DNA of 64,000 nucleotides, from assembly GCA_902562835.1 (NCBI GenBank), contig CACEUX010000008.1, forward strand, positions 3,726-67,725, in the 5' to 3' direction. The notes beneath the pieces were generated by a model that saw only the letters and a program-made list of their open reading frames with translations, made no database searches and was not told the DNA's origin. Positions 4,701 through 22,409 of this stretch are shown here, piece by piece. Made by a program: the position numbers and the translations under genes. The first letter of the stretch is position 1; each line of letters starts with the position of its first letter. Origin of the DNA: an uncultured Fidelibacterota bacterium. Its GTDB lineage: Bacteria; Fidelibacterota; Marinisomatia; Marinisomatales; UBA1611.

Positions 4701-5831
4701 ATGAAAAAAACACTTTTTATTATTTTAACCACACTTTCATTTGGGCAAAGACTCGATGAAATAGATATAGCATTAAATGAGCTAGAAACAATAGTTCAAA
4801 TGGCATCACGGTCATCCCAGAAAGTATTTGTAGAAGATTTCACTGGTCTTCAGTGACCATACTGTCCCTCTGCGAGTTTCGCAATATCACAGATGCTTGA
4901 TGATTATCCAGAGACATTAATGAGCATCGAATGGCATAATTCAAGTTTCACCCCTGGAAATTCAGATTTTGATATTCCAGAATATAGTTCTAGAGCCTCT
5001 ATGTATGGAGTGGGCGGTATCCCACACACTCAGTGGAATGGCGTACAAGAAACGGTTGGAGGCTATCCAAATGGTAACTGGGAACAGTTCATAGGAACTT
5101 TCACAGCACTATACAATAATATGGTTGGGAATGATACCCCTTATGAAGTGAGTATAAATGGCTATGCTGGTTTGGAGGTAAGCTACGAAGTAGCAGTTTC
5201 AATGGATTCTGATATGAGTAGCTCTAACCAAAAAGTTGATATATTTGTAGCCGAAGATAACATATGGTCTTATTGGACAGGTGCGAGCCAGTATCATAAT
5301 GCAAGAAATGTAGCAAGGGATTGGTTAGCTACAGAGGATCTGACAATTAGCTCAGAAGGTGAATCACAAATATTTTCAGGTAGTTTTGATCTTGATGAGG
5401 ATTGGAATTCAGACAGTGTAAAGATCATTGCAATTGTTCAAAACTATTCTTCAAAACAGATCTATCAGGTCACTGCCGTAAATATAAATGATATGAATCC
5501 AGATATAGATGATGATGGTGTTTTGAATGGAGAAGACAATTGTATAGATATTTATAATCCAGGCCAGGAAGATAGTGATAGTGACCTCATAGGTGATCTT
5601 TGCGACCCTTGTGACAATTTAGTTTATATTGCTGGAAATATAAATGGTGATACAAATGATAATGGGATTCCAGTTATTGATATCATGGATGTTCTTTCTT
5701 TAGTGGATTATTTGTTGTTTGATGATTCATACGCTTGTCAAGACCCTTCAATGAATTTTAATAATGATGAATTTGTTAATGTCGTTGATGTTATAGCATT
5801 GGTCCAATACATTTTGGGCGGAAATAACTAG
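4701..5831 (+). CDS. Selenocysteine-containing secreted thioredoxin-fold protein (family A, copy 1) with C-terminal TSP3 repeats and dockerin-like module
   Basis: ATG 4701 (MKKTLFIILTTLSFGQ signal) is in frame with the listed ORF 4893..5831, with no other stop between them. The only interruption is TGA 4854-4856 inside VEDFTGLQ-U-PYC-PSASFAI, a UxxC redox motif. A cis-Pro-like GGIPHTQWNG lies downstream. The C-terminus has DIDDDGVLNGEDNC..NPGQEDSDSD..CDPCDN (TSP3) and two Asp/Asn-rich dockerin-like segments. Confidence 0.82.
4854..4883 (+). promoter_or_regulatory. UGA(Sec) plus putative bacterial SECIS hairpin (copy A1)
   Basis: The hairpin TGCGA-GTT-TCGCA (4871-4883) starts 17 nt from the U of the UGA. 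Spacing matches copies A2 and A3. The closing pair is U-A here and C-G in the other two copies, a compensatory change. Confidence 0.6.
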
Positions 5832-5843
5832 GCGAGATAGTTT

Positions 5844-6371
5844 ATGGAGAGAATACATAGATCTACTTTTTATCTCTTTATACTAACAAATTTTATATTT
5901 GCTGACAGTAGTGATATTGGAAATACCATACCAGATCTCAAGATACGATTACTTGATGGTACAACCAAAACTATACATGAACTCGTTGATGATGGTCCTC
6001 TTATGATCGATTTTTGGGCTACATGGTGTGTGCCGTGTAAAAAGCTAATGAGATACCTAGACCAGTATCATCAGGATTATTCTAAGGATGGTTTTAAGGT
6101 GCTGATGATCAATACGGATACTCCTAGATCAATGGGTAAAGTAAAGTCATATGTAAGAGCTCAGGATTATAAATTCTATATTGGAATGGATCCTAATAAA
6201 ACGATCTCAAAGAAATTAAATGGGATGGTTATGCCCACTATGATACTTGTGGATAAAGGCGGGGAAGTGAAATGGCGTCATCAAGGCTACATATCAGGCG
6301 AAGAAATTGAGGTGAACAATCAGATCAAACAACTTTTGGAGAATAATCTTGAAGAAACATTTGAAGGCTAA
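5844..6371 (+). CDS. TlpA/ResA-like periplasmic thiol-disulfide oxidoreductase (Cys form)
   Basis: 175 aa with an N-terminal signal peptide. It has the FWATWCVPCKK thioredoxin active site and MPTMILVD (cis-Pro). Size is typical of the TlpA/redoxin family. Confidence 0.85.
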   Translation: MERIHRSTFYLFILTNFIFADSSDIGNTIPDLKIRLLDGTTKTIHELVDDGPLMIDFWATWCVPCKKLMRYLDQYHQDYSKDGFKVLMINTDTPRSMGKVKSYVRAQDYKFYIGMDPNKTISKKLNGMVMPTMILVDKGGEVKWRHQGYISGEEIEVNNQIKQLLENNLEETFEG

Positions 6372-8325
6372 AATCTTAAAAGAAGCAATTGTACTTATCG
6401 TGTGTACATCATATGTATTTGCTAATCAAGTAGATATGAATGGAGCTGTGAATTCAAATTTTGGAAACAGCTACGGATTTTATGACTTCTCTGAAAATAT
6501 ACTTGATCTAAATATATTTTATAATGACCTTCAAGGTTGGATACAGTATGAATATTCAAATCCTCCTGATATTGGTTTTGGGAAAAATGATATAAGAAAA
6601 TTTAGGCTTGAATACTCAACGGGAGATTTTATCCTAAAATTGGGTGACCTCTATGAGTTCTGGGGGCGAGGTCTTCTCCTTAATCAGTTTGATGATCAGG
6701 TGACTAATTTTGATAATGGTACCAGAGGGATGTTGATCGAGTATGACAGTGGCTCTCTTTCTGCAAGTCATATGAACGGGAATTCAAGTATATGGAACAT
6801 GGGAGCAGATACAAGAACGCCGGAATACAATAATATTCATAGCATGATGGCAAATCGATTAGAGTACAACAGGGGTCTTATTACATTAGGTCTAACCCAG
6901 CTTAGGTCAAATGAGGAACATGATGTGAATTTTGGTCCATCTGTTTTTGTCAGCCATGACCTTAAAGGTGCCTATGCTACATGGGCAAGCGGGAATGCAG
7001 ATCTTTTTGTAGAATATGTAGATAAAGTGTCAACGGAAAAAGTAACTATGTTTGGCACCATACCTAATGATACTTTGCTGAAAGGGCACGGCTACTATCA
7101 AAACTTTAATTTCTATTTTGGTAATTGGGGCATCTCAACTGAATACAAGCGGTATGCTTTTGATAGAGCATATGGTGATATAACTTCTGATGATTATGGT
7201 AACCAGATAGAATACCAGCAGATGCCAACACTTGGGAAGGAACATAATTCCACGTTGCTTGGTCGGCTGACACACAATTACAACTTCAATGACGAAAGAG
7301 GGGCGCAAGTTGAGGTGAATGGATCACTTCTTGGACTATCTATAACAGCCCAATACGCACATCTCAGTCGAAATGAAACATGGCAATCAGTTGGGTCATT
7401 TGAATGGACAGATAAGGCTATTGAGGGCTTTCTACCAAGTTCAGATATATCTGCTTTACCATATTGGGAAAATTACCAGGAAGTCAGTGGGTACGCATTC
7501 AATGATAAGTTCTATTTCAAACTTGGTAGGGGCTCAAATAAAGAAGTTTTAAAGACCATACGATATTTTGAAGGTACTCAGGTTGATATTTCATCTGTAG
7601 ATACTTCATTAACATGGGTCTATGATACACTCGTATGGAATGACGAGACATATTTTGATTCAACAGAAGTCGAACTTTATGATACCAATTATACATCGCC
7701 GTTTAATGTTGAGTCCAAGTTATGGCAAGAAAGTAAAGCTTTTACCATACCTCTGGAAGTGAACTATATTTTTGATAATGGATATACGCTCGGCCTGGGT
7801 TTTCAATACCAAGAGAGAGAAAAGGTAAATAGGTCAAAGGGTAATGCGACAACATTTAATGCCAGTGACTCATCATGGACGATGTACGACCCTGATGATT
7901 ATTCAAATACATATGATGAGACCGTAAGCCAACTTGCAAATCCAGATGGCGCTGTCAAAACACAATATAATCGGCTAGTTTATCTCTCCATAAGTAAAGC
8001 TCCTAAATGGTCTTTTACCATTACCCATGATATGACTAATGCATATGAAGCAAGCTCTCCATATGACCCATACTATAATCCACTTGAAGCATTGATCTCT
8101 GGTGATCTAAAATACTTCACAGGAAAGAGGAACAATATTGAACCACCCAGCTGGATACAAAATCGTTGGGTCTCCGTGGAGTTTGCCTATAATATCACAT
8201 CATCGCAAAGACTTTCAATTATGTATGGCTCAATCCAAGGCGGACTCTTTTGCAGTAATGGTGTTTGCAGACTTATACCCCCATTTAATGATGGGGTTAA
8301 GATCAGTTACAGTGCGAGTTTCTAA
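6349..8325 (+). CDS. Putative large outer-membrane beta-barrel protein (paralog 1)
   Basis: 658 aa with a signal-like N-terminus. Aromatic/Gly-rich alternating strands run throughout and the terminal residue is Phe (..KISYSASF), an OMP signature. It overlaps the TlpA gene end by 23 nt. The start (TTG 6349 or TTG 6361) is uncertain. Confidence 0.65.
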   Translation: MKKHLKAKILKEAIVLIVCTSYVFANQVDMNGAVNSNFGNSYGFYDFSENILDLNIFYNDLQGWIQYEYSNPPDIGFGKNDIRKFRLEYSTGDFILKLGDLYEFWGRGLLLNQFDDQVTNFDNGTRGMLIEYDSGSLSASHMNGNSSIWNMGADTRTPEYNNIHSMMANRLEYNRGLITLGLTQLRSNEEHDVNFGPSVFVSHDLKGAYATWASGNADLFVEYVDKVSTEKVTMFGTIPNDTLLKGHGYYQNFNFYFGNWGISTEYKRYAFDRAYGDITSDDYGNQIEYQQMPTLGKEHNSTLLGRLTHNYNFNDERGAQVEVNGSLLGLSITAQYAHLSRNETWQSVGSFEWTDKAIEGFLPSSDISALPYWENYQEVSGYAFNDKFYFKLGRGSNKEVLKTIRYFEGTQVDISSVDTSLTWVYDTLVWNDETYFDSTEVELYDTNYTSPFNVESKLWQESKAFTIPLEVNYIFDNGYTLGLGFQYQEREKVNRSKGNATTFNASDSSWTMYDPDDYSNTYDETVSQLANPDGAVKTQYNRLVYLSISKAPKWSFTITHDMTNAYEASSPYDPYYNPLEALISGDLKYFTGKRNNIEPPSWIQNRWVSVEFAYNITSSQRLSIMYGSIQGGLFCSNGVCRLIPPFNDGVKISYSASF

Positions 8326-8399: not shown

Positions 8400-9575
8400 A
8401 TGAAAAACCTATATATAATACTACTGATATCATTACCCTTTGCTCAGCAACTGGATCCTGTTGATATGGCCGTTGAAGAATTAAGAACTATAGTTGAAGC
8501 TGCATCAAGATCAAGTCAGCGTGTTTTTGTTGATGACTTTACAGGACTAAACTGACCATACTGTCCATCCGCGAGTTTCGCGATTTCAGAAATGTTAGAT
8601 GAGTTTCCTGGAACCCTAATCAGCACTGAGTGGCACTCAGCGGGCTATACGCCAGGAGATTCTGACTTTGAAGAGTGTTATTATTATGACAACTTTGGAG
8701 GCTGTTATGGTGCAAGAGCTAGTCTTTATGGCGTAGGAGGCATCCCACACACAGAATGGAATGGTATATATGACCTGACAGGAGGTTGGGCTAATGGTAA
8801 TTGGGAACCAGCGTATAATTATTTTATTGGGTTCTATAATGACCTGATTGGAACTGAAACCCCCTACGAGATCATTATCAATGGAATAAAAGATGGCTCA
8901 ACAGTTAATTATGAGATTACTGTTTCTATGGATGATGACTATTCTGTCCAGAACCAAAAAGTAGAAATAATAGTTGTAGAGGATAACATTATGTCATACT
9001 GGGCAGGTGCAAACCAAGACCATAATGCAAGGAATGTTGCAAGGTATTGGATAGGCACTGAAGACCTGACCATCAATTCAGCTGGGCAATCACAAACTTT
9101 TTCAGGATCATTTGAGATAGATGAAGAAGCATGGAACTCTGACAGTGTTAAAATTATTTCAATGGTTCAGAATTATGGGAATTATGAAGTATTTCAAGTT
9201 CAAGAGATAAATGTTAACGAATTTGATACGGATCAGGATGGCGTGGTAAATAATGAAGATAATTGTGAGGCAGACTATAACCCTGGGCAAGAAGATATAG
9301 ATGGAGATGGACTAGGCGATGCATGTGATCTCTGCGACAACACAAACATATACATACCTGGTAATGTCAGTGGTGATTATTGGTATTATGATACTAGTAG
9401 TCTAGAACCGACGGTAACTATTGATGTGTTTGACGTTTTAAAACTTTCGGAGATCATCGTATCAGGGGAAGAAGAGAGTTGTGGATATCAAGCCGGCGAT
9501 CTAACTGGAGATGGTGATGTTAATATAATTGATGTTATTGCACTTGCTTCGTTTATAATGGACGGCGCGTTCTAG
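8400..9575 (+). CDS. Selenocysteine-containing secreted thioredoxin-fold protein (family A, copy 2) with TSP3 and dockerin-like C-terminus
   Basis: ATG 8400 (MKNLYIILLISLPFAQQ) is in frame with ORF 8592..9575. The single in-frame TGA 8553-8555 sits in VDDFTGLN-U-PYC-PSASFAI. DTDQDGVVNNEDNC..NPGQEDIDGDGLGDACDLCDN is TSP3, and GDLTGDGDVNIIDVIALASFI is a dockerin-like repeat. Confidence 0.83.
8553..8582 (+). promoter_or_regulatory. UGA(Sec) plus putative bacterial SECIS hairpin (copy A2)
   Basis: The hairpin CGCGA-GTT-TCGCG (8570-8582) starts 17 nt from the UGA. It lies within a 36-nt block identical to copy A3. Confidence 0.6.
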
Positions 9576-9774: not shown

Positions 9775-10980
9775 ATGAAAAAAGCTCGTTCAATAGCACT
9801 TTCATTTATTACAATCACATTTATTTCTACATTCCTTCCTGCACAGGCACTTGATCACAGGCACATGGCGTTCGAGAATCTACGCATGTCTGTTATGAAT
9901 GCTTCTCAAAGTGGCCAAAATGTTTATGTTGAAGACTTTACAGGTCTTAACTGACCATACTGTCCATCCGCGAGTTTCGCGATTGATACACTTCTAAAAG
10001 AATTTCCAGGTACACTTCACTCAATTGAATGGCACAGTCCAGGTTACACTCCAGATTCTTCTGACTTTTGTCTCCAAACAGAGTTTTACATGAGAGCTGG
10101 TCTATACGGAGTTAGTGCTTACCCTACCACTGTATGGAATGGTGTGCATAATCAGGTGGGTGGAGCCAGTGGTGGGAACTGGGAATCCATATATCCTGGA
10201 TATTTAGAGTTATATCATGAGCATTATGACCTGCCATCTCAATTTCGTCTTGGCATATCAGGTGAATATGAGCCTGGAGATAATGAGGTCAATTTTAGTG
10301 TAGAGATACTAATTGACAACGATATTGATACTACTGTAAACATTGAGAATACCTATGTTGAAGTATTCGCTGTTGAAGATAATATTTATTCCTTCTGGGG
10401 AAGTGTTGGGCAGTGGCATAACGCCAGGAATGTAGCAAGAAGGTACGTCACAAAAAGTGAAGCCAATAAGAATCCAGTTTCGGTAAGCGAAGCGGGACAG
10501 TCAGAGATCTTTGAGCACAATTTACTCTTGTCAGATGCCTGGGAGCATTCAAATGTGAAAATAGTTGCTATTGTGCAACAATTTCAAGGTGAAGGATCTG
10601 ACCATCCCATTACTCAAGCTCAAACAAGAAATATAAATGATCTAGATCCTGATCCGGATGGTGATGAATTGACCTATCTTTATGATAACTGTCACTATGT
10701 ATACAATCCTGGGCAAGAAGATGCTGATGGAGACGAATATGGAGACGCCTGTGACGCATGTAATGGACTTGTAAATATTCAAGGGAATGTAGACCTTGAT
10801 GCTCATGGAGAAAATTTTACTCCGATCATTGGTGTGGCTGATGTTTTAGCATTATCTGATCTTCTTGATGGTAGTGGTCTTCCTCCAAATGATTGCCAGT
10901 CTATAGATATGCTTGAAGATGGAACGATAAATAACTTCGACCTGATAGTATTGGTAGATGTGGTAATGGCAGGAGGCTAG
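9775..10980 (+). CDS. Selenocysteine-containing secreted thioredoxin-fold protein (family A, copy 3) with TSP3 and dockerin-like C-terminus
   Basis: ATG 9775 is preceded by AAGAGG (SD-like) and opens a signal peptide, MKKARSIALSFITITFISTFLPAQA. ORF 9751..9954 and ORF 10090..10980 share a frame and are joined by stop-free sequence after TGA 9952-9954, in VEDFTGLN-U-PYC-PSASFAI. SAYPTTVWNG is cis-Pro-like. DPDPDGDE..NPGQEDADGDEYGDACDACNG is TSP3. Confidence 0.83.
9952..9981 (+). promoter_or_regulatory. UGA(Sec) plus putative bacterial SECIS hairpin (copy A3)
   Basis: The hairpin CGCGA-GTT-TCGCG (9969-9981) starts 17 nt from the UGA. Confidence 0.6.
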
Positions 10981-11058: not shown

Positions 11059-12003
11059 ATGAAAGTTATTTTGTTCTATTTCCTTCGTTTACTTTTAATT
11101 ACTTCTTTTGCAGTAATGCCTATTCAGGCTCAACTCCAAGTTGGAGATATTTCCCCTGATTTTAGTGGTCCAATGTGTATGAATGGAGAAGATGTTAACC
11201 CTGATATTGTAACAGGTGATTACTGGAGTTTATTCGAGGAAGGAGATGGAAAGGTTACATGGATAAACTTATTCACTTCATGGTGACCATCCTGTCAGGT
11301 GGAGGCTCCACAAACAGAAAGTATATGGCAGGACTTCTTAGCAGAAAATGAAAATTATCTTAATATAGTTGCCAATGGCTTTGACTGGACATCTTACACG
11401 TGTGCAGGGTGGGCCTCAGCATTTGGAATTACATATCCTATGATAGATGGTGGATCAAGTGGTGGGGAAGCTTGGAATCTTTTTGGAGATGGTTATATTC
11501 CTCACAATGTTGTTCTAGATCATAACCACGAGGTGCTTTACACATCCTCAGGATATAGTGAAGGTGCGATCATGGCTGCTATAGAACTTGGATTATCATA
11601 TGTTCCAAGAGATGAAGATGGAGATGGGATCATGGATAGTACTGATAATTGTATTGATGTTCCTAATGATGACCAATTAGACCATGATTTGGATGGTCTT
11701 GGCGATGCTTGTGACCTTTGCAACAACTTAGAAATATATGTTACTGGTAATATAGATGGGTCTGTTGGTATGACCGATCATAATCCAACCATAGATCTGT
11801 TTGATATACTTCGTTTGTCCGATATTGTCCTCTTGGGTGTAGATGAGGGCTGTGGCTATGAGATCAGTGATATTAGAGAAGATGGAGTTATAAACATTCT
11901 TGATATTATTACATTGGTACAGTACGTCCTCTATGGTGAATTGCCTGATGAGAATACAATCGCTATACCACCTAACGCATATCTCTTATCTGAAAATAAT
12001 TGA
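11059..12003 (+). CDS. Selenocysteine-containing TlpA-like thioredoxin-fold secreted protein (family B, copy 1) with TSP3 and dockerin-like C-terminus
   Basis: ORF 11059..11286 (signal peptide, ..WINLFTSW) and ORF 11299..12003 are in the same frame. They are separated only by TGA 11284-11286, which gives W-U-PSC-QVEAP. This aligns with WCxPC..E.P of TlpA-type redoxins. YIPHNVVLD is cis-Pro-like. DEDGDGIMDSTDNC..DHDLDGLGDACDLCNN is TSP3, and a dockerin-like tail follows. Confidence 0.82.
11284..11311 (+). promoter_or_regulatory. UGA(Sec) plus putative SECIS hairpin (copy B1)
   Basis: The hairpin GTGGA-GGC-TCCAC (11299-11311) starts 15 nt from the UGA. Confidence 0.55.
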
Positions 12004-12138: not shown

Positions 12139-15100
12139 ATGCTGAATAATAAGAAACATCTGTACAAAAGCATCATCACCCTAATGGCCTTTTCTTGTTT
12201 TATTTTTGGTCAAACCGATTTCTCATTCAAAAATATATCAGTCAAGGATGGGCTTGCTGAGAGTACTGTTAAAGTAATTTATGAAGACCAGAATGGTTTC
12301 ATATACTTTGGCACAGAAAACGGCCTCGATGTTTTTGATGGCTATGAGTTTACAAATTATCAAATGAACTCATTCAATGAATTATCAATTCTTGGCAATA
12401 AGATCTCAACCATTTATGAAGATGCCAGTCATATGATCTGGGTTGGCACTGAATTAGGCGTCAGTAAGTTTGATCCATCGAAAAGAGAATTTTCAAGGCC
12501 TATTAAACTTGATGGGGCAGACCTAATTAATTCTGAAACTATTATTGACGACGGTCAAGGTAACATTTATATCAAATTGAGAGATGATGGTTTAGTTTAT
12601 CAGTACAATGGTGTTGATAGTGTATTGACATGTTTTAATTGTTCAGATGAATCAGTCATAAATGATGAGATGGTTACCGTTTTAAGTAAAGATTCTAAGG
12701 GTACTATCTTAATTGGAACCAATACTGGCCTACGCTACTATGATATCAAGTCAAATCGAATTATCAAAGTAGGTGTTGAAGCTGGATTAGATGATATATC
12801 TGTGAATGCCATAGAGCGCGGAGCCAAAAATGATATTTGGGTTGGAACCTCAAATGGTCTATTCAAATTAAATGGTGGTCTAGGTGGTAGTATAGATGTT
12901 TATAGAAAAAATGAACAAAGTACATCAATAGTTTCAAATTATGTTAAAGATCTGGATTGGGATGTAGAGAGAAATGAACTATGGATAGCAACCCAAAATG
13001 GTATTTCTCGTTACATACCTTCAGAGTCAAGTTTTTTTAATATCCAGATGACACCATATGCAGACAGTATAATAGAAAATGATATATCTGAAATACTTAT
13101 TGCAGTTAAATCAGGTCGTTTATGGTATACTACTGAAAATCATTCTGGGCTGAATTGTTTATCGGTGGGAGAGGATTTCGATTCTGAAGGTCCACCTCCG
13201 GCAAACCATTTTGAGCATGACCCCATTGATAAAGGATCCATAGCGGATAATGAGATCAATGATTTTATTGAAGACAAAGCTGGTCATGTTTGGATAGGTA
13301 CGGGACAAAATGGTATCAGTTTCTTTTCCTATGTTAAACCAAAGTTTGTGAACCATAGATATGATCAGGAGAATGAATGGGGTTTAAAGAGTGACAAGAT
13401 ATATTCTATCACTACGCAGAGTGACGGCATGATGTGGGTAGCTACTGGTTTTGGTCTTGAAAAAATTTCATATGATGGTATCAGGGACCAAGAGTATGAA
13501 AAGTCTCTCCTAAATGTCAACTATATAATTGACCTTGAGATCATAAATGATGTGATGTTGTGGGTAGCGACAGATCAAGGCATACTAAAGATCGATACTT
13601 GGAACGATTATGATGCTGAAAATATTATTAGGTTTTCGGAATCAGATAGCCTTCCGCCATCAAGACGAATATCAAATAATCTAGTTCATGATATTTTGCC
13701 CATTGAAGATAAGATCTGGGTTGCCACAGGATCTGGTATGGTGATAATTGATACAACAACTAATAGTGTCACAGATTTTAATTCAGATCTGATCGCAAGA
13801 GTTATTTCAAAGGACTCTAGTGGTAATATTTGGCTTGGAACGGAAATGGATGGACTTTTTAAGATTCCATACGAACTATTGGGCGATATTGAAAAGGGAG
13901 AAGATTTTGAGTTAGAGGGGCATATCTTTGATAAGGCTTTTACTAGTGGTATTTCTTCTTCCCAGATAACTTGTATTACGGAAGATAAAAATGGAGTGAT
14001 CTGGGTTGGTACTAACGGAGGCCTTAATAAGTATATCAGTGAAAAAGATAATTTTGAGCATTATTTTGTTCAAGATGGTCTGCCGAGTAACTATATAACA
14101 GGTGTGCTTGTTGATAAAACTAATGGGTTGTGGATCAGTTCAAAAAAAGGAATTTCATTTTATGACCAGGTTAATTCAACATTCACCAATTACAGTCTTA
14201 CAGATGGTATAGGTAATATTGATTTTCATAGGCATAGCTATGATCAAAGTGCAGATGGAAGTATATTTTTTGGTGGGCCAATGGGCATAACATTGGTCAA
14301 TCCGGCAGAATTACAATTCAATGATTATCAACCACCCTGTTTGATTACTAGACTTAAGAAAACCTATTTTGATGATTCAGTAAAAGAAATATACTCATTC
14401 GATGATTCCGATGGCTCCAATGGGGGAGAGAGTATTTCAACCATAGTGATCGATCATAGAGTAAAATCATTTAGTATTGATTTTGTGGCTCTCAACTATC
14501 ATCAAACTGTAAAAAACCAATACAGGTATAAGTTAGAGCCATTTGATAGGGACTGGGTATCATCTCAAGGGTTACGTTTTGCATCGTATAATAATCTTGG
14601 AAGAAGTACTTATAATTTTATGGTTCAAGGCTCTAACGATGATGGGGTATGGTCCGCACCTGCAAAGTTAGATATCAAATTTACGCCACATCCTCTTTTA
14701 AGTATTTGGGCTTTCTCTTTCTATTCAGTCCTTTTGATCATTGGTATATTTATTTTCATGCGTCACCGTATGCATAAACAAAAATATCAACTAGAGGAAG
14801 AACGACGCATTCAAGAGCTCGAGCAAGCGAGAGATTTTCAAATGTCCTTGATACCGCAAAGCCCACCAGATCACCCTGACTATGATATTGCACTGCATAT
14901 GAAAACATCAACGGAAGTCGGTGGGGATTATTATGACTTTTTTCCACAAGAAGATGGCTCTATGTATGTTGTGTGTGGTGACGCAACTGGCCATGGTTTA
15001 AATGCTGGAATGATGGTCTCTATCACAAAAGCAGGACTCTATGGGTCGGACTTTGACACACCTTCAAGTACAACCACACGTCTGAATAGAACTATTAAGG

Positions 15101-15519
15101 CAATCGATCTTGGTACAACTCGGATGTCTTTAAATATGGCAAAATTTAATAACGGGTCTTTTGATTTCACATCAGCAGGAATGCCCCCGGCATATCTATA
15201 TAAACACTCTACAAAAGATGTAAATGAAATACTTGTTCCGGGGCTTCCATTGGGTTCAATGAAAAAAGCAGATTTTGATTTACATTCTTTTGATCTTGAT
15301 ACAAACGATGCTCTTGTTTTGATCTCTGATGGACTTCCAGAGTGTGTAAACCATGAGGGTGAGATGCTAGACTATGAGCCGGTTAAGGATTGTATTACAG
15401 CAAATGGAAATAAAACAGCACAGGGTATTATTGATTCTCTGATCGATCTTGGCGATGACTGGATGTCGGGTTTAATGAATGATGATGATATTACTCTTGT
15501 GGTAATAAAGAAAAAGTAA
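12139..15519 (+). CDS. Sensor protein: periplasmic two-component-regulator beta-propeller repeats, one TM segment, cytoplasmic PP2C/SpoIIE-type phosphatase
   Basis: 1126 aa. Many repeats of the ..G.IW.GT..GL..(F/Y).. type are typical of regulator propeller domains. A hydrophobic segment (WAFSFYSVLLIIGIFIF) follows. The C-terminus has GGDYYDFF...GDATGHGLNAGMM...DDITLVVI, matching SpoIIE/PP2C motifs. Confidence 0.8.
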   Translation: MLNNKKHLYKSIITLMAFSCFIFGQTDFSFKNISVKDGLAESTVKVIYEDQNGFIYFGTENGLDVFDGYEFTNYQMNSFNELSILGNKISTIYEDASHMIWVGTELGVSKFDPSKREFSRPIKLDGADLINSETIIDDGQGNIYIKLRDDGLVYQYNGVDSVLTCFNCSDESVINDEMVTVLSKDSKGTILIGTNTGLRYYDIKSNRIIKVGVEAGLDDISVNAIERGAKNDIWVGTSNGLFKLNGGLGGSIDVYRKNEQSTSIVSNYVKDLDWDVERNELWIATQNGISRYIPSESSFFNIQMTPYADSIIENDISEILIAVKSGRLWYTTENHSGLNCLSVGEDFDSEGPPPANHFEHDPIDKGSIADNEINDFIEDKAGHVWIGTGQNGISFFSYVKPKFVNHRYDQENEWGLKSDKIYSITTQSDGMMWVATGFGLEKISYDGIRDQEYEKSLLNVNYIIDLEIINDVMLWVATDQGILKIDTWNDYDAENIIRFSESDSLPPSRRISNNLVHDILPIEDKIWVATGSGMVIIDTTTNSVTDFNSDLIARVISKDSSGNIWLGTEMDGLFKIPYELLGDIEKGEDFELEGHIFDKAFTSGISSSQITCITEDKNGVIWVGTNGGLNKYISEKDNFEHYFVQDGLPSNYITGVLVDKTNGLWISSKKGISFYDQVNSTFTNYSLTDGIGNIDFHRHSYDQSADGSIFFGGPMGITLVNPAELQFNDYQPPCLITRLKKTYFDDSVKEIYSFDDSDGSNGGESISTIVIDHRVKSFSIDFVALNYHQTVKNQYRYKLEPFDRDWVSSQGLRFASYNNLGRSTYNFMVQGSNDDGVWSAPAKLDIKFTPHPLLSIWAFSFYSVLLIIGIFIFMRHRMHKQKYQLEEERRIQELEQARDFQMSLIPQSPPDHPDYDIALHMKTSTEVGGDYYDFFPQEDGSMYVVCGDATGHGLNAGMMVSITKAGLYGSDFDTPSSTTTRLNRTIKAIDLGTTRMSLNMAKFNNGSFDFTSAGMPPAYLYKHSTKDVNEILVPGLPLGSMKKADFDLHSFDLDTNDALVLISDGLPECVNHEGEMLDYEPVKDCITANGNKTAQGIIDSLIDLGDDWMSGLMNDDDITLVVIKKK

Positions 15520-15570
15520 TTTATTCTAAGACATAGGTAAGATTGATTGTGAAAAGGCTAATAATAATTA

Positions 15571-16107
15571 TTGCGTTGGTGTCCTCGTTTTTTATCAGCT
15601 CAAGATAAGGTACCGAACATAAGACTTAAAATGATAAACGGTAAATACGCAAAATTATACGATTTTCTCAAAGAAGGACCTATGATAATTGATTTCTGGG
15701 CAACCTGGTGCGAGCCATGCAAAAAGCAAATGCGCTATTTAGACCTTTTCTATAATCATTTTAAACCATCTGGGTTTAATGTCCTCACGGTTAATACTGA
15801 TTCACCAAAAAGTATGAGCAAGGTAAAGCCTTATATTCGTACAAAAGGTTTTGAATTCAATGTTGCCGTAGATCCAAATAGCCAGGTGAAAAAGAGACTC
15901 AAAGTACAGGAAATGCCTACAACGATAATTATTGATCAGGATGGTTCAATATTGTATCGTCACAAGGGCTATGTTCCAGGCGATGAAGTTGGTATTCTAA
16001 AGGCTGTAACTGATATCCTTGATAAAAAAGGTATAGAATATCTACCTCTAGACCTCGATAAAGTCCAAGCAGTAAAGAAACAAGAGAAACTTAATATTGA
16101 TTTTTAG
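15571..16107 (+). CDS. TlpA-like thiol-disulfide oxidoreductase (Cys form), apparently frameshifted from its signal peptide
   Basis: FWATWCEPCKKQM active site and MPTTIIID cis-Pro. It is a close paralog of 19382..19960. As listed it has no signal peptide. A signal peptide (GTG 15549, MKRLIIIIALVSSF) lies in the neighbouring frame, across a T6 run at 15588-15593. Confidence 0.75.
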   Translation: MRWCPRFLSAQDKVPNIRLKMINGKYAKLYDFLKEGPMIIDFWATWCEPCKKQMRYLDLFYNHFKPSGFNVLTVNTDSPKSMSKVKPYIRTKGFEFNVAVDPNSQVKKRLKVQEMPTTIIIDQDGSILYRHKGYVPGDEVGILKAVTDILDKKGIEYLPLDLDKVQAVKKQEKLNIDF

Positions 16108-18385
16108 AATATACAATTTGACCAAGCTCCTTAATAGTACGCTTTTCTGTTCTGGAATCTTATTTACAACATTAGTCAATGCACAAATAAGTACAGGAGG
16201 AGATGCTTCACTTAAATTTGGTGAGAGTAAGAATAATTTTAATTATTCTGAGGTCTTATTAAATATGAATGTCAGCAATGATTACCTAACAACATGGTTT
16301 CAGTTTGAATATAGTAACCCTCCTGAAATTGGCTTAACTAAAAATGGCTTAAGAAAGTTTAGGGTAGATTATGTTGGAGATAATATTGAACTTTCTGTCG
16401 GAGACATTTACAAAATATGGGGAAGGGGACTTATCCTAAATCAATTTGATGACCAAGATGTAGACTTAGATAATGGATATAGGGGCTTAAGTTTTGGACT
16501 GATAGAAAATGATTATTCATTAAATCTTATTGCAGGTAATTCAAATATATCTAACATTACTTCTGATTATATGTATGACCTCGATCTTGAAGTTCGAAAG
16601 CCAAATTATTTTCCAAAGCATTCCTTATTTGGTGGCGATTTTGAGTTGTTCCGTGGTCCGGTATCTTTTGCAACATCTTTTTTGCAAAGTCGTGAGAGCC
16701 ATCCTATCAATGCTGGTATGCAACCAGATAGCATCGATGTTATTCACCGAATACATGGGCTAAGAAGTGGGTATGAAGGAAACTCATTAAGTGGGTATGT
16801 AGAATTGGCAAATAAATTAACTCTTCTACCCACATCTATGGGAAGTGATGATCATGAAGATTTTAGACCTTATAATGGAACCTCTTTATTTGCAAATCTG
16901 AATTACTATTTTAACATGTCACCCTTTGATGGTTGGTCACTCATGATGGAGTATAAGAATTACAATACTACAAAGATCAATCCAGACCAAAGGAATAATT
17001 ATGTAAATAATTATGACATGAATTTGATCTTCACTCAACCACCTACAGTGATTCGTGAGCATAGTAGTGTATTGCTAGCAAGGCTGATTCCGCAGGTCAA
17101 TTTCAATGACGAGGTGGGCTACCAACTCTCACTCGTAGGCCCAGTTAGTAATCTAGGGTATTTTACTCTTAATTATCAGGCTGCCAGCAGGACCAGCTTA
17201 TGGGCAAAAGAATTTCCAGATACTGTAAACGCGGCATTTAGTTCAAAATGGAGTGGCGATAGTTCTATAACTTATTTACCATATGATGATGATGTCACGT
17301 TTCCTTATAATGAGTTGTATGTTGAAATGGAAGGGTATATCAATAAGATACGATATCAACTTGGTTTAGGCTTTACAAATAAAATATCTGAATACCATTC
17401 TCTCTATAGTAGTGCTCAAAATAATAGCTGGGACATAGGTGAGTTATTTACAGATCTTAATAATAGTGGTACATGGGATCCGGGTGAACCTTATGATGAT
17501 CTATATAGTATTGTAAATGAGAGATTAGAGAATAAATATACCAATGCTGTCACAGTACCAACGTTGTTTAATTATAATCTGGGAAATGGATTGAGCATCG
17601 ATCTCAAATATGAGTACCAAAGGTTGAAAAGTGGTGTTAATTATAATTTCACATTGTCATCGGATGAGTACTTCGAAGATCTTGATGGAGATGGCTTATG
17701 GGATATGGCAGAGTTGTTTACTGATGATAATGAAAATGGTGTGTGGGATGATGCTGAAGAAACTTGGTATGATAATTGGTTGAATGGTTGGATTTCTGAT
17801 GACCTTTTACCAAATTATGACACGAATGGCAATGGTGAATATGATATTGGAGAATATTTTTCTGATGCAGATGGTGATGGTATTTGGGACCCCGCTGAAG
17901 CTTTCACTGACCTTGATGGTGATGGAATATGGGATGATGGAGAGGTCTTGGACGATATGAATAATGATGGTGTATGGACACCAAAAGGAACTTACGTAGA
18001 TAGTACAAGATCTAACTTTTATGCCTATGATGGCGATAGCGATGAAAAGCTAGCTCAAGAATTTCAAAATAATCATATGTTAACAATTGGTCTTGGAAAG
18101 TCACCTTATTGGTCTTTATCATTGACCATAGAATCAAGTTCAGCGTACGAATATGGACCTCAACCTTTAAGCATCTCTAATCCACTTGAAGATCTACTTG
18201 GCAACATTATGGATATGGAAAACAAATGGGTGGCAATCGACCTTATGATAAATATCAACTCAAATACACGTCTTGATCTTATGTATGGGACTTTAAGAGG
18301 TGGTGTCATTTGTAGTAATGGTATTTGTAGATATGTTGAACCATTTGATGACGGATTCAAGCTAAGTTTGACCTCAGTATTCTGA
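16097..18385 (+). CDS. Putative large outer-membrane beta-barrel protein (paralog 2) with Asp-rich repeat insertion
   Basis: 762 aa. It shares N-terminal (WFQFEYSNPPEIG...LILNQFDDQ) and C-terminal (GG.ICSNGICRYVEPFDDGFKLSLTSVF) blocks with 6349..8325 and ends in Phe. It overlaps the upstream TlpA-like gene by 11 nt. Confidence 0.65.
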   Translation: MIFRIYNLTKLLNSTLFCSGILFTTLVNAQISTGGDASLKFGESKNNFNYSEVLLNMNVSNDYLTTWFQFEYSNPPEIGLTKNGLRKFRVDYVGDNIELSVGDIYKIWGRGLILNQFDDQDVDLDNGYRGLSFGLIENDYSLNLIAGNSNISNITSDYMYDLDLEVRKPNYFPKHSLFGGDFELFRGPVSFATSFLQSRESHPINAGMQPDSIDVIHRIHGLRSGYEGNSLSGYVELANKLTLLPTSMGSDDHEDFRPYNGTSLFANLNYYFNMSPFDGWSLMMEYKNYNTTKINPDQRNNYVNNYDMNLIFTQPPTVIREHSSVLLARLIPQVNFNDEVGYQLSLVGPVSNLGYFTLNYQAASRTSLWAKEFPDTVNAAFSSKWSGDSSITYLPYDDDVTFPYNELYVEMEGYINKIRYQLGLGFTNKISEYHSLYSSAQNNSWDIGELFTDLNNSGTWDPGEPYDDLYSIVNERLENKYTNAVTVPTLFNYNLGNGLSIDLKYEYQRLKSGVNYNFTLSSDEYFEDLDGDGLWDMAELFTDDNENGVWDDAEETWYDNWLNGWISDDLLPNYDTNGNGEYDIGEYFSDADGDGIWDPAEAFTDLDGDGIWDDGEVLDDMNNDGVWTPKGTYVDSTRSNFYAYDGDSDEKLAQEFQNNHMLTIGLGKSPYWSLSLTIESSSAYEYGPQPLSISNPLEDLLGNIMDMENKWVAIDLMININSNTRLDLMYGTLRGGVICSNGICRYVEPFDDGFKLSLTSVF

Positions 18386-18507: not shown

Positions 18508-19374
18508 ATGAAGCAGCTCATTTCAATATTGATAATACCATTCTTTCTTAGTATTTCACCACTTGATGGTCAAGATGTTTACATGGAAGATTTTAGTGTA
18601 CCTATATGTGAAAACGGTAATGGAGAAGATACTCTACACTTTTTTGAAGCATATAATGGTGCATATAACGATTGTGGTTACAAGGTGATATTTGCCACTC
18701 TTTTTACCTCCTGGTGAGGATACTGCTGGGGGGAGGCTCCCCTCACACAGCAGTTATACGACACATATAATGACCAAGGCCTTGAAGTGGTTGCATTTGG
18801 AGCTGATTGGGGTGAGCCATATACTTGCCAACAGTGGATGAACTCATTTGATATTACATATCCCATTGCTGACTTTGAGACTGGCATGCCTAATTGGTAT
18901 CAAGAGGATATACCTATCAATCTACAGATGCATCAAATAGGTTGGGGCCTACCTTACAATATTATTATAGACCATAATATGGAGGTCATCTGGGGGGGCG
19001 TAAATGACATTGCTGAGGAAGAAGTATGGGAAGAGGCTGTTACAATGATAGAAAGTGCTCTGAATCATTTGAATGCGGAGGCACTCGTTGATAATGATGG
19101 GGATGGTATAGCTAATGAATGTGATGATTGCCCTGACTCACATCTATATACCTTAGGAAATTTTGATTTTTCAGAAGAAATCGTAGTTGATGGTCTTAAC
19201 TTTGTATATGCCCCTAGCATAGAAGTTTATGATCTACTTTTCCTTTCAGATCTAGTTAGCAGTGGTGATGAAATTTCACCATGTTATATTGAGGCGAGTG
19301 ATTTTACTGGTGATAATGCTCTGGATTTAATTGATATAATGGCTTTAGCTAGCTATATAGTAGAGGGTAATTAG
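18508..19374 (+). CDS. Selenocysteine-containing TlpA-like thioredoxin-fold secreted protein (family B, copy 2)
   Basis: ORF 18508..18717 (signal peptide, ..ATLFTSW) and ORF 18787..19374 are in frame. TGA 18715-18717 gives W-U-GYC-WGEAP, with stop-free sequence between the two ORFs. GLPYNIIID is cis-Pro-like. DNDGDGIANECDDCPD is a TSP3-like repeat, followed by a dockerin-like tail. Confidence 0.8.
18715..18744 (+). promoter_or_regulatory. UGA(Sec) plus putative SECIS hairpin (copy B2)
   Basis: GGGGA-GGC-TCCCC core (18730-18742), extendable to 18728-18744 with one G-U pair. The offset from the UGA is 15 nt, as in copy B1. Confidence 0.55.
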
Positions 19375-19381
19375 AAAAATC

Positions 19382-19960
19382 ATGACCATTAAGGCTCGAT
19401 ATGATATGCTTAGAAAGATATTTTTTTTTACAATGCTCTTTACATTGGCATATTCGCAAGGCAAGGTTCCAAATGTACGTCTAAAAATGTTAGATGGTAG
19501 CTCAGCCAAACTTTATGATTACCTCAAAGATGGGCCTATGATCATTGACTTTTGGGCAACTTGGTGTGAGCCATGTAAAAAACAGATGCATCATCTAAAT
19601 AAATTTCACCAGCATTTCAAAGATGCTGGATTTAAGGTTCTTACTGTTAATACTGATACTCCAAAAAGTATGGGCAAGGTGAAATCATATATAAGGTCAA
19701 AGAAATTCAAATTTTTTGTAGCTGTAGATCCTAATGGTCAAGTAAAGAAAAAATTAAAAGCAGAGCTCATGCCGACTACGATCTTAGTTGATACGGATGG
19801 CTCGGTGCTTTATCGTCATCAGGGGTATTACCCAGGAGATGAAGATAAAATATTAAAACATATCACGGACTATTTTGATGCAGCAGAAATAAGCTATGAC
19901 CCATACGATACTGAAAAGAAAAAACAGACAGCTAAAAAGCAAGTAGATATAGATTTTTAG
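19382..19960 (+). CDS. TlpA-like periplasmic thiol-disulfide oxidoreductase (Cys form)
   Basis: 192 aa with signal peptide (IFFFTMLFTLAYSQG), FWATWCEPCKKQM and MPTTILVD. It starts 8 nt after the family B Sec gene. Confidence 0.85.
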   Translation: MTIKARYDMLRKIFFFTMLFTLAYSQGKVPNVRLKMLDGSSAKLYDYLKDGPMIIDFWATWCEPCKKQMHHLNKFHQHFKDAGFKVLTVNTDTPKSMGKVKSYIRSKKFKFFVAVDPNGQVKKKLKAELMPTTILVDTDGSVLYRHQGYYPGDEDKILKHITDYFDAAEISYDPYDTEKKKQTAKKQVDIDF

Positions 19961-20040: not shown

Positions 20041-20114
20041 GCGCCCGTAGCTCAACTGGATAGAGTGTCTGGCTACGGACCAGAAGGTTGGGGGTTCGAA
20101 TCCTCCCGGGCGTA
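20041..20114 (+). tRNA. tRNA-Arg (anticodon ACG)
   Basis: 74-nt cloverleaf folded by hand. Acceptor GCGCCCG/CGGGCGU (G1-U72 wobble), D-arm GCUC..GAGU, anticodon stem UCUGG/CCAGA with loop CUACGGA, T-arm GGGGG-UUCGAAU-CCUCC. CCA is not encoded. Confidence 0.88.
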
Positions 20115-20124
20115 CTTATCGACA

Positions 20125-20152: not shown

Positions 20153-20193
20153 TTTGATGGAAGTTTCTATCACAATAATATCTGATTAATAAA

Positions 20194-21474
20194 ATGAACA
20201 AAGAACAAATAAATAAATTCACCTGCAAATTTGAGGATAAGGAATTAGAGCATGAATTTCTCCTCACACGATGGAATAAGGTTTGGACTTACATAAAGAT
20301 TCTCCTTTATTTTAATGTGCCTCTGGGATTTATGATAAGGATAGATGATATTTTCATTCGAGGTGCGGGAATGAATCCGTATTATCTTGCTTATCATGCA
20401 TTTGCAATTATCCTTCTGATCGTTTTTCTCATCTCCTCAAATCAAAAGAAACGAAAATATCATCAGGCTTACTTTTTAGTTGAAGCAATAGGGTTTATGA
20501 ACTGTGGAGCTTGGACTTATTACTTTTCTGATATTCAGTTTCCAGTAGGTGCCGGCGTCATTCCAAATATGATAATGATATATCTTGTTATTTTTCCATT
20601 CAATTTAATTAACGGTGTAATTGCCACTCTCGGCACTGCAATTCCTTTTGCTTTTCTTGTTATATCGGAAGGCAATATGACACCGGATCAATTGTCTTAT
20701 CTTTTCATTCTTCCCTTTATTTTCCTTATAATGAATAAACACAGCAGAGAAATAGATTATAGAAGAGACTTTTTTCAAAACAAGAACCTAGAATTAAATC
20801 GAAAATTGATGCAACAAACATTAAAACGTTATTTTGGGGAGAGACTTACGGAAAAAATGTTGGATAATGAAGGTGAGATTCAAGGTGATAATATTTGGGT
20901 TTCCATATCATTTACAGACATTGCAGCTTACTCAACTATTATCGAACATATGTCACCTGAGACAGCTGTAAAATTCCTAAATGAGTATTTTTCTGCAATG
21001 CATGATGTCATTGAAAAACACAATGGACAGATTATCAATTATATTGGTGACTCTGTTATGGTAGTATTTGGTGCTCCACAAAAGTTAGAAGACCACGAAA
21101 TAATTTCTGTTAAATGTGCTATAGAAATGAGAGAGAAGTTATCTGAATTAAATGCCAGATGGGATGGGACAGAATTCTCAAGATATTGGAAGAATCATGG
21201 CATTGATGGAATAACAGCAAGAACCGGAATACATACCGGAAGCGTCATTGCTGGTAATATTGGTAGCGACAGAATGTTACAATATAGTACAATTGGTGAT
21301 ACCGTTAATGTTGCTTCAAGGTTAGAGCAAAGGAATAAGGAGTTCGGTACTAGCATACTTTTTTCACAAAAGATATATACATCTCTTACAAAAGATCTCT
21401 ATGATAAATCAGAATATCAGGGAGAGATAAGCCTAAAAGGAAGAGACACAAAAACAAAAACATATAGTATTTAG
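20194..21474 (+). CDS. Membrane-anchored class III adenylate/guanylate cyclase
   Basis: 426 aa. The N-terminal half has about 6 hydrophobic segments. The C-terminal half has VSISFTDIAAYSTI..., NYIGDSVMVVFGAP, GIHTGSVIAGNIGS and YSTIGDTVNVASRLE, which are canonical class III cyclase blocks. Confidence 0.85.
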   Translation: MNKEQINKFTCKFEDKELEHEFLLTRWNKVWTYIKILLYFNVPLGFMIRIDDIFIRGAGMNPYYLAYHAFAIILLIVFLISSNQKKRKYHQAYFLVEAIGFMNCGAWTYYFSDIQFPVGAGVIPNMIMIYLVIFPFNLINGVIATLGTAIPFAFLVISEGNMTPDQLSYLFILPFIFLIMNKHSREIDYRRDFFQNKNLELNRKLMQQTLKRYFGERLTEKMLDNEGEIQGDNIWVSISFTDIAAYSTIIEHMSPETAVKFLNEYFSAMHDVIEKHNGQIINYIGDSVMVVFGAPQKLEDHEIISVKCAIEMREKLSELNARWDGTEFSRYWKNHGIDGITARTGIHTGSVIAGNIGSDRMLQYSTIGDTVNVASRLEQRNKEFGTSILFSQKIYTSLTKDLYDKSEYQGEISLKGRDTKTKTYSI

Positions 21475-21617
21475 ATTGATTGTTTTTATTTCATGTCTAT
21501 CAGCTTAAATGATATTTTTCAAAATTAGGTGTAAAAGCTTTTCAGGCCTTTTTAAAAAGGGTTTTTTATTAGAATTTTGTATATATAAACATTAGATTAT
21601 CGTCAGGAATTCAATCC

Positions 21618-22409
21618 GTGAAAATTAAACTAATCATCACATTATTTTTAATGACGCTTTCTAGTGCACAAGTTTATGATGTGGGCGATTTTGCACCATC
21701 CGATTTTGGACTTCCTTGGTGTGGTAATAACCCAGCTGGTGATGATAGTTTATTTTTGAGTGCATATAATGGAGCTATCAATGAAACAGGCCGTCCCTAT
21801 GTCATATGGTTGACTGCTTTTACAACTTGGTGAGGATATTGTTTGACGGAGGCTCCTGTCACTCAAGAATACTTTGATCTCTATGCTGATTCAGGATTAG
21901 TTGTGATTGGAATGGGAGGCGACTGGGGCCAACCTTACACCTGTGAAGGGTGGGTAGACAACTTCGGTTTAGGTTACCCTATAATATCTGATGAGGATAC
22001 CTACAATGAATATGAATATGGAGGTTTAGGAACTAATTTATTTACAGATACTTGGGTTCCATATAATATGATAATAGATCATACAATGGAGATAATCTAT
22101 TCGTCATCTGATTATTATGGTCAGGAAGGATATGACCTAATTTTCGATAAGCTCTTTGGCGCCTTAAATAAATGTACTCTATGCACCTGCTCAGAAGTTC
22201 TTGGAGACATTGACCATACATATACCATTGATAATGAACCTATCATTAATATAATGGATTTGTTAAGGCTCTCGGATCTTATTACAACGGATACGCGAAT
22301 GAACCATTGCGAGAGAGGGCAGGGAGATATTACTGGAGATGGTGTTTTGAATACGATCGATCTTTTTGCTTTTGCAACCATGATCTCAGAAGGTGTCTTT
22401 GATAACTAA
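21618..22409 (+). CDS. Selenocysteine-containing TlpA-like thioredoxin-fold secreted protein (family B, copy 3; dockerin-like tail only)
   Basis: ORF 21618..21833 (GTG start, signal peptide, ..LTAFTTW) and ORF 21843..22409 are in frame. TGA 21831-21833 gives W-U-GYC-LTEAP. WVPYNMIID is cis-Pro-like. The C-terminus GDITGDGVLNTIDLFAFATMI is dockerin-like. I see no TSP3 repeat. Confidence 0.78.
21831..21860 (+). promoter_or_regulatory. UGA(Sec) plus putative SECIS hairpin (copy B3)
   Basis: GGA-GGC-TCC core with a possible bulged U and outer GAC/GTC pairs (21845-21860). It is weaker than copies B1 and B2. Confidence 0.4.

Follow-up and report, generated by a model that had tools for sequence, protein, structure and literature searches.

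The 64-kb stretch of DNA analysed here (64,000 nucleotides; the window) comes from the genome of a marine member of Candidatus Neomarinimicrobiota (SAR406, Marinisomatales) and carries six genes, termed S1 to S6, in which a single in-frame TGA very probably encodes selenocysteine (Sec). The overall best explanation of the locus, to which we give a probability of roughly 0.6, is that these genes encode genuine Sec proteins standing in the third-gene position of a cassette, behind a TlpA-like reductase and an outer-membrane beta-barrel, and that the products belong to an envelope redox module dependent on TlpA and the barrel. Marinimicrobia/SAR406 form a very abundant clade of the dark and the low-oxygen ocean.

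All six genes lie on the plus strand, and each needs read-through of a single in-frame TGA, the opening codon of a UxxC motif, to be full length. S1 (4701-5831; TGA codon at 4854-4856) reads FTGLQ-U-PYCP across the site, and its paralogs S2 (8400-9575; TGA codon at 8553-8555) and S3 (9775-10980; TGA codon at 9952-9954) share the U-PYC motif. The corresponding motifs are FTSW-U-PSC in S4 (11059-12003; TGA codon at 11284-11286), FTSW-U-GYC in S5 (18508-19374; TGA codon at 18715-18717) and FTTW-U-GYC in S6 (21618-22409; TGA codon at 21831-21833). The genes are thus present as an earlier note on this DNA had described them, with its tally of motifs (U-PYC three times, U-PSC once, U-GYC twice) and its signal peptides, which we see in all six as a short basic and then hydrophobic N-terminal segment. 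Its description of the six as paralogs of one another was wrong: profile searches split them into two families, one (family A) comprising the GOS_C or Omp28-related selenoproteins S1-S3 and the other (family B) the ResA/TlpA-like redoxin selenoproteins S4-S6. When all six frames of the window were scanned for open reading frames (ORFs) interrupted by a single TGA, only S1-S6 were plausible; four further matches were explained by antisense ORFs or by neighbouring genes that share a frame. TGA is the ordinary stop codon of 11 of the 39 genes in the window, which excludes a genome-wide reassignment of this codon.

The in-frame TGA is conserved without exception. With S1 as the query, 18 loci were recovered from species-representative genomes, every one in Candidatus Neomarinimicrobiota/Marinimicrobia metagenome-assembled genomes (MAGs) or marine MAGs, the closest being 'bacterium TMED46' at 94% identity. 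Together with three metagenome contigs these give 21 loci at 61-94% identity, in which the TGA is kept at the identical position at 35 of 35 family A and 14 of 14 family B sites (49/49), with protein sequence and reading frame conserved on both sides of it. The earlier note had proposed looking for Cys or Sec at the aligned column in homologs, and this is what we find: in distant family A homologs the column of U52 holds Cys in 42 and Sec in 2, and the second Cys of the motif (Cys55) is present in all 44. For family B, profile matches place U on the first Cys of the ResA/TlpA WCxxC motif. Public gene callers have begun almost every homolog at the first Met that follows the TGA, leaving 83% or 56% query coverage, and two full-length homologs in a public collection, P0002 and P0181, have Trp at the Sec site, evidently as a result of translation with genetic code 4. 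Both selenoprotein families are systematically mis-annotated in public data.

Downstream of each TGA we observe a hairpin resembling a selenocysteine insertion sequence (SECIS), on the plus strand at 4871-4883 in S1 (UGCGA-GUU-UCGCA, with the loop 19 nt past the UGA), 8570-8582 in S2, 9969-9981 in S3, 11299-11311 in S4 (GUGGA-GGC-UCCAC), 18730-18742 in S5 (an extended stem with a minimum free energy (MFE) of -18.4 kcal/mol) and 21846-21858 in S6. The published bacterial SECIS (bSECIS) consensus describes a loop of 3-9 nt whose first two positions contain G and a stem of 4-16 bp, located 16-37 nt after the UGA, with an MFE of at most -7.5 kcal/mol. The six hairpins agree with it, having 5-bp stems, G-first triloops (GUU or GGC) and a spacing of 19 or 17 nt. 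Over 45 nt, the MFE ranges from -7.5 to -18.4 kcal/mol in S1-S6, with S2 exactly at the limit, compared with -4 to -6 kcal/mol in the Cys paralogs.

The case for these hairpins rests on covariation. The family A hairpin has the form Y-GCG-A / GUU / U-CGC-R, its loop 19 nt 3' of the TGA. Its outer pair, 18-30, which joins two third codon positions (Ser and Ala), is paired in all 29 distinct sequences (CG 17, UA 9, UG 2, AU 1), and pair 21-27, also wobble-to-wobble, is GC in 28 and AU in 1. Constraint on the protein sequence does not account for this pairing. The covariation score for this family exceeds those of 500 of 500 shuffles and of every slid control. In family B the hairpin, N-N-GGA / GGC / UCC-N'-N', lies 17 nt 3' of the TGA; pair 17-27 is CG 7, UA 3 and GC 1, a further pair is GC 7 and UA 2, and 93% of cells are paired, compared with at most 53% in slid controls. 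Its nine core nucleotides are invariant, synonymous positions included. Local hairpins are more stable in the Sec forms than in the 42 Cys-form homologs (-5.99 versus -2.71 kcal/mol), a comparison that is indicative only, since the Sec sequences are related to one another. In one distant Sec form (L025) the hairpin is a different one, its loop likewise containing G. A covariance-model search, of the type that the earlier note had suggested, gave only two tRNAs and no SECIS family with Rfam at gathering thresholds.

On profile evidence, S1-S3 are members of the hypothetical protein family GOS_C, which is NCBIfam NF045500 ('Omp28-related selenoprotein'): they match this model over its full length with 587.1, 514.5 and 467.9 bits, respectively (cut-off 200). 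GOS_C was reported with a thioredoxin (Trx)-like fold by Zhang & Gladyshev in 2008 as by far the most abundant new selenoprotein family in the Global Ocean Sampling data (PMC2398784), and a 2026 review equates it with NF045500 (PMC13188914). Each of the three proteins is laid out as a signal peptide, a Trx-like region with FTGL-x-U-PYCP, an Omp28 (PF11551) beta-sandwich, one TSP3 repeat and a dockerin-like tail. Profile matches to the Trx fold are weak (TIGR02187, E 4.6e-5; TIGR00411, E 4e-4; PDB 1fo5, E 0.01), and hhalign aligns the family A CxxC with that of a TlpA-like protein of the locus (TlpA3, below) at a probability of 31%. An AlphaFold2 (AF2) model of GOS_C was built from P0002, with W at the Sec site and a shallow N-terminal alignment; its predicted local distance difference test score (pLDDT) falls below 50 over residues 1-60, and the N terminus is unreliable. 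The top Foldseek match of this model is HBP35 of P. gingivalis (5y1a, E 7e-7, 203 columns), followed by the Omp28 domain structure 2r2c. HBP35 reaches the cell surface through the type IX secretion system (T9SS), has thioredoxin activity in vitro, binds hemin and is needed for growth under hemin limitation (PMC2907840).

S4-S6 each combine a Redoxin/AhpC-TSA domain containing F-T-[ST]-W-U-x-x-C with a tail of the same kind as in S1-S3. S4 scores 28.1 bits against Redoxin (cut-off 26.6) and matches ResA and StoA structures in the PDB; S5 scores 25.8 bits against AhpC-TSA, just below the cut-off of 26, and 40 bits against ResA model NF002854 (E 3.4e-10); S6 reaches 32.2 bits against AhpC-TSA (cut-off 26). 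The NF045500 model touches these proteins through their C-terminal tails only (36-108 bits), and they are not members of that family; no curated NCBIfam selenoprotein model fits them (WAxxUGC_long, 15-22 bits versus 300). The homologs found are confined to Marinimicrobia. Judged from domain and motif, S4-S6 are of an already catalogued kind of selenoprotein, namely 'Redoxin family protein, UxxC' and 'Prx-like thiol:disulfide oxidoreductase, UxxC' (PMC13188914, PMC5029168).

Of the C-terminal modules assigned earlier, the TSP3 repeat is genuine, and for the other the word 'dockerin-like' goes as far as the data allow. The TSP3 repeat, with the calcium-binding motif DxDxDGxxDxxDxC, was matched by phmmer to thrombospondin-2/COMP structures (E 2e-13 for S1 and 2e-19 for S4), while a single repeat scores below the Pfam cut-off (16.5-17.9 versus 25 bits). 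S1-S4 show it clearly, S5 keeps half a repeat and S6 has none, against an earlier count of five TSP3-bearing proteins. The likeness of the tail ends to dockerin type I (PF00404) is real as a resemblance, and their helices are modelled at a pLDDT of 83-90, but every tail stays under the Pfam cut-off of 22.9 bits: isolated tails score 14.2-18.0 bits, S3 gives no score, and full-length S2 reaches 22.4 bits. Por_Secre_tail, the sorting domain of type IX secretion, was found by Pfam on none of S1-S6; it is present in orthologs of S4 and in one S1 ortholog (L020), where it replaces or extends the dockerin-like end. Further T9SS cargo is encoded in the window.

From their N-terminal segments, S1-S6 are likely to be exported, and given the T9SS C-terminal domains of orthologs they are probably retained at the outer membrane or outside it. 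These domains and the likeness to HBP35 support such a location without proving it. Of the earlier proposal that the proteins are exported and tethered to the surface or matrix, export accordingly stands on the signal peptides and the T9SS domains of orthologs; the surface location is one that we infer. A large protein encoded nearby was considered as a cohesin scaffold for the tails and rejected. This 4306-aa protein (23434-36354), which follows an acidic (E/D/Y) repeat protein of 260 aa (22645-23427), has Big_13 Ig-like repeats and a T9SS tail only; the pair is syntenic in L011, L012, L018 and L020.

The second line of evidence is the genetic setting of S1-S6. Three Cys-type TlpA-like proteins are encoded among them on the plus strand, as had been predicted: TlpA1 (5844-6371; WCVPC; Redoxin, 75.8 bits; signal-like N terminus), TlpA2 (15571-16107; WCEPC; AhpC-TSA, 84.9 bits) and TlpA3 (19382-19960; WCEPC; Redoxin, 89.4 bits; signal peptide), whose Redoxin/AhpC-TSA matches span 71-89 bits and whose motif is WCxPC. 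The predicted coupling of two of them to outer-membrane barrels of 658 and 762 aa also held up. These barrels, B1 (6349-8325, plus strand; 81.1 bits) and B2 (16097-18385, plus strand; 82.9 bits), both belong to DUF6029 (PF19494; Pfam cut-off 27 bits), overlap the stops of TlpA1 and TlpA2 by about 11-23 nt and end in Phe. The window contains two cassettes, TlpA1-B1-S2, with S1 upstream and S3 and S4 after S2, and TlpA2-B2-S5.

This arrangement is conserved within Marinimicrobia and well outside it. Synteny across the 18 Marinimicrobia MAGs gives the order gltX, glnS, the exported protein p439 (below), GOS_C, TlpA, DUF6029, zero to three more GOS_C genes, a ResA-like Sec protein, a Reg_prop/PP2C sensor, TlpA and DUF6029, maintained where protein identity is as low as 55-60%. 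In four distant representatives of DUF6029 (26-38% identity), TlpA is directly upstream in 4 of 4 cases and an Omp28-type protein directly downstream in 3 of 4; two of these three proteins are Sec forms, and the third is a Cys form (CPPC) that ends in a T9SS tail. A metagenome scan with an alignment of 10 sequences of a distant DUF6029 subfamily yielded 80 loci (L026-L105; GC 0.29-0.67). Of the 65 loci with enough upstream sequence, 64 have TlpA as the next gene upstream, in the same orientation. On the other side, 59 loci have enough sequence; in 42 of them a hidden Markov model built from the Marinimicrobia proteins recognised the next gene downstream as encoding an Omp28-Trx protein, and 11 of the remaining 17 downstream ORFs are Omp28 lipoproteins with KVLVELFTNTSC-x-x-C, identified by Pfam or by inspection, for a total of at least 53 of 59. 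The other six are RNase G (twice), TrpE, CcmB and, at two loci, ORFs not assigned to a family. Such non-Omp28 genes after DUF6029 are found as CcmB in L067 (4032-4703), RNase G in L024, L045 and L046, and TrpE in L033. In six non-marine loci (L062, L065, L066, L080, L081 and L084), a DsbD_TM (CcdA-like) gene directly precedes TlpA; a small thioredoxin is encoded further upstream in five loci. The co-occurrence of Sec-Trx, TlpA and barrel genes that the earlier note had asked about is thus seen both as synteny in the 18 MAGs and as a cassette in unrelated metagenome loci. Because the cassette is conserved far outside the Marinimicrobia lineage, we consider a joint function of TlpA, the barrel and the Trx-fold protein probable.

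The DUF6029 barrels contain a cysteine pair that is itself invariant. An AF2 model of B1 (pLDDT 87.6; predicted template-modelling score 0.85) is an all-beta barrel of roughly 22-24 strands, for which Foldseek returns generic large outer-membrane barrels (TonB-dependent receptors, AlgE, FimD) at a template-modelling score (TM) of about 0.4. A motif GG-x2-C-x4-C precedes the last strand in 85 of 87 DUF6029 representatives; the other two are without the C-terminal segment. The two cysteines, Cys635 and Cys640 in B1, with the same C-x4-C pair in B2, are invariant in all 60 aligned sequences, at a mean column identity of 23%, and many members, from varied GC backgrounds, have no cysteine beyond this pair. 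The B1 model places the pair in a small beta-hairpin that connects the last barrel strand to the one before it, and strand parity in this model makes it appear to face the extracellular or lumenal side. B2 differs from B1 by an insertion of about 100 aa (residues ~560-680) with DGDG-x-WD acidic repeats, probably a calcium-binding extracellular loop.

From these observations we propose the following model, in which the direction of electron flow and the role of the barrel are as we infer them. The UGA codons would be read as Sec with the aid of the 5-bp hairpin with a G-first triloop 17-19 nt downstream. S1-S6 would then leave the cytoplasm via signal peptides of the Sec export pathway, their genes occupying the third-gene position of two cassette copies. 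Reducing power would enter the periplasm through a membrane protein of the CcdA/DsbD type and pass on to TlpA, and TlpA and the barrel would keep outward-facing (seleno)thiol oxidoreductases reduced and active, with the barrel taking part either through its Cys pair or as a docking or export platform. S1-S6 would thus be the terminal oxidoreductases of a TlpA-dependent envelope redox module, in which Marinimicrobia may have replaced the attacking Cys by Sec and multiplied the acceptor genes. Whether electrons actually pass the outer membrane is a separate matter, and we think it unlikely that they do. Similarly unlikely is the fully specified relay, from cytoplasmic thioredoxin to CcdA, TlpA, the C-x4-C pair of DUF6029 and finally the surface Omp28/HBP35-like and ResA-like Sec oxidoreductases, an idea that is strengthened by the invariant Cys pair of the barrel and by the adjacency of CcdA in some loci.

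Several points weigh against this model. No selA, selB, selD or tRNA-Sec was found in the window or in any fetched locus, and ARAGORN, run on the window and 22 related loci, detected no tRNA-Sec; the SelD reported in SAR406 single-cell genomes offers only indirect support for Sec decoding. The hairpins are short and their single-sequence folding z-scores are weak (-0.1 to -2.1), so the SECIS case depends on the covariation. The Trx fold of S1-S3 is drawn from weak profile matches, a model with an unreliable N-terminal 60 residues and the 2008 paper. As to the tails, they score below threshold as dockerins, and a cohesin partner for them was looked for without success. Synteny inside a single order may partly reflect shared ancestry, and adjacency shows neither the direction of electron flow nor physical contact. 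Finally, if the Cys hairpin of the barrel is extracellular, as it appears, a periplasmic TlpA could reach it only before assembly.

One alternative ranks first among the rivals, although we regard it as improbable: TlpA, as a dedicated enzyme, would reduce or isomerise the barrel Cys pair and the exported CxxC/UxxC proteins only during their transit through the oxidising periplasm, with no later electron flow across the outer membrane, and the barrel would be an export, insertion or anchoring device for the Omp28-type protein. The tight coupling of TlpA and DUF6029 (64 of 65 loci, with gene overlap) fits a chaperone-client pair equally well, the hairpin in the modelled, assembled barrel appears extracellular, and lipoproteins and T9SS cargo, which have to traverse the outer membrane or be inserted into it, are frequent at the third position. 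Orthologs with T9SS domains, however, already possess an export route, and a structural disulfide would normally call for an oxidase (DsbA) rather than a TlpA of the reductant branch with CcdA adjacent. Maturation would also leave both the multiplication of acceptors and the switch to Sec unexplained.

Considerably less likely is that DUF6029 and the Omp28/HBP35-like protein form an import pair of the SusC/SusD type for a redox-sensitive nutrient, such as heme or iron, as in the case of HBP35, or a compound that contains a disulfide or selenium. The substrate would be captured or reduced by the surface UxxC, and TlpA would complete the reaction or recycle the components. The closest characterised structure, HBP35, with its hemin binding, thioredoxin activity and requirement under hemin limitation, speaks for such a function, as do the similarity of B1 to large transporter barrels (TM about 0.4) and the pairing of a barrel with a surface lipoprotein, which is typical of the FCB group. 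The B1 model has neither a plug domain nor a TonB-box-like N terminus, though, the Foldseek similarity is generic, and no inner-membrane transporter is conserved among the neighbours of the cassette loci. We find it very unlikely that DUF6029 is a Wzi-like polysaccharide porin whose adjacency to redox genes is meaningless: a published HHpred observation ties Wzi-barrel-like proteins near OPX genes to DUF6029, but TlpA adjoins in 64 of 65 loci and an Omp28 CxxC protein in roughly 90%, the barrel Cys pair is invariant, and OPX or polysaccharide genes are not among the recurrent neighbours of the cassette.

The least credible reading, that the TGAs are not Sec codons but stops in split genes or pseudogenes, sequencing errors, or Trp or Gly codons of an alternative code, could appeal to the absence of Sec machinery from the available sequence and to public callers that split the genes or, as in P0002 and P0181, used code 4, yet it is contradicted by the data and we reject it: the TGA occupies the exact column at 49 sites in 21 independent assemblies, homologs carry Cys there, not Trp or Gly, TGA stops end 11 of 39 genes, a covarying hairpin follows the TGA and the family is curated as a selenoprotein family (NF045500). 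The decoding machinery aside, S1-S6 are selenoprotein genes.

The remaining genes of the locus fall in between and around the cassettes. Directly upstream of S1 lies p439 (3346-4665, plus strand), a 439-aa exported protein with a signal-like N terminus and no Pfam or NCBIfam match. It holds this position in every Marinimicrobia relative, and a protein of its type also occurs upstream of TlpA in a distant Sec-form locus (L022, 307-1740), with sizes of 439-477 aa; it may be a further component of the cassette. The sensor (12139-15519, plus strand), which is syntenic in relatives, consists of a Reg_prop/Y_Y_Y beta-propeller, a transmembrane (TM) segment and a SpoIIE/PP2C phosphatase, and the cyclase (20194-21474, plus strand) is a multi-TM adenylate/guanylate cyclase (Guanylate_cyc, 106 bits); both had been correctly recognised as embedded in the locus. 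A tRNA-Arg(ACG) at 20041-20115 stands between TlpA3 and the cyclase, a position kept in L011, L012, L013, L018 and L020. In TlpA2, the signal-peptide region (15540-15600) is shifted by 1 nt: frame 1 reads VRLIVKRLIIIIALVSSFFISSR and then a stop, and the gene resumes in another frame, whereas L004 (94% identical) reads LIVKKLIIMIALISSFLSAQDKV unbroken in one frame. To judge from this alignment of frames, the true start of TlpA2 is probably near 15543, and the frameshift, at a T6 run, reflects a genuine lesion or else a homopolymer error of the assembly. Beyond the locus, the window encodes other T9SS cargo at 44403-51917 (an M6-like peptidase, FlgD_ig domains) and, at 52048-61083, a cluster resembling type IV pilus and type II secretion systems (prepilin, T2SSE ATPase, PilM, PilN, PilO and secretin). 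Both are unrelated to the selenoprotein finding.

Several consequences follow. GOS_C, an orphan family for 18 years, gains a host, a conserved cassette context and a domain architecture, in which calcium-binding tethering modules come after an HBP35-like Trx domain and beta-sandwich. Cys-form cassettes are widespread in non-marine metagenomes and may therefore occur in cultivable bacteria, whose knock-outs and redox-state measurements would make the function testable. Should electrons indeed reach the surface through a barrel with a Cys pair, this would be a new type of envelope redox pathway. S1-S6 would be rare examples of extracellular bacterial selenoproteins, with consequences for the selenium demand of the ocean, and SAR406 would be performing reducing (seleno)thiol chemistry on the cell surface in oxic or low-oxygen seawater.

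The earlier note knew of no described system with this architecture, which appears right for the context and is wrong for the selenoprotein families. The TlpA-DUF6029-Omp28 cassette with its invariant Cys pair and the six-gene, two-family cluster of SAR406 both appear undescribed, while the selenoprotein families themselves are known (GOS_C since 2008, and the catalogued UxxC redoxins) and operons with several Sec genes have precedents. In the literature we found no link between Omp28 and selenoproteins or between DUF6029 and redox chemistry, the only published idea about DUF6029 being the Wzi-like one, and, Haft & Tolstoy 2025 aside, neither an assignment of GOS_C to Marinimicrobia nor a description of its context.

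Like the published GOS_C/NF045500 proteins, S1-S3 are of marine origin, carry the UxxC motif on a putative Trx-like fold and have Cys homologs. Where the published accounts (PMC2398784, PMC13188914) give no organism, domain architecture, genomic context or function, the present locus adds a Marinimicrobia host, one to four copies per locus and placement in a TlpA-DUF6029 cassette. HBP35 (PDB 5Y1A) resembles the GOS_C model in having an N-terminal Trx-like CxxC domain followed by a beta-sandwich, and differs in using Cys instead of Sec and in being without a TSP3 or dockerin-like tail; their sequence similarity is marginal (phmmer E 0.99), and the likeness is one of fold only. The catalogued redoxin and Prx-like UxxC selenoproteins have the redoxin fold and a Sec in the first position of UxxC in common with S4-S6, which are set apart by their TSP3, dockerin-like or T9SS tails.

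Known clients of TlpA/ResA are apocytochrome c, ScoI/CoxB and Msr. The pathways that lead from CcdA/DsbD to TlpA, ResA or CcmG correspond to the proposed module in that TlpA1-3 are typical WCxPC redoxins with signal peptides and a CcdA-like gene precedes TlpA in six loci. The clients of those pathways are periplasmic, however, whereas the conserved partners of TlpA in the cassette are a Trx-fold protein that is exported or at the surface and an outer-membrane barrel bearing a Cys pair. Two multi-selenoprotein operons have been described, SAO, with six Sec genes, and Tso, with three (Haft and co-workers, via PMC13188914). Like the locus described here, they place several Sec genes alongside non-Sec partners, implying a single pathway. 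They differ from it in their families and chemistry, and in the SAR406 locus the number of Sec genes comes from paralog expansion of two Trx-fold families.

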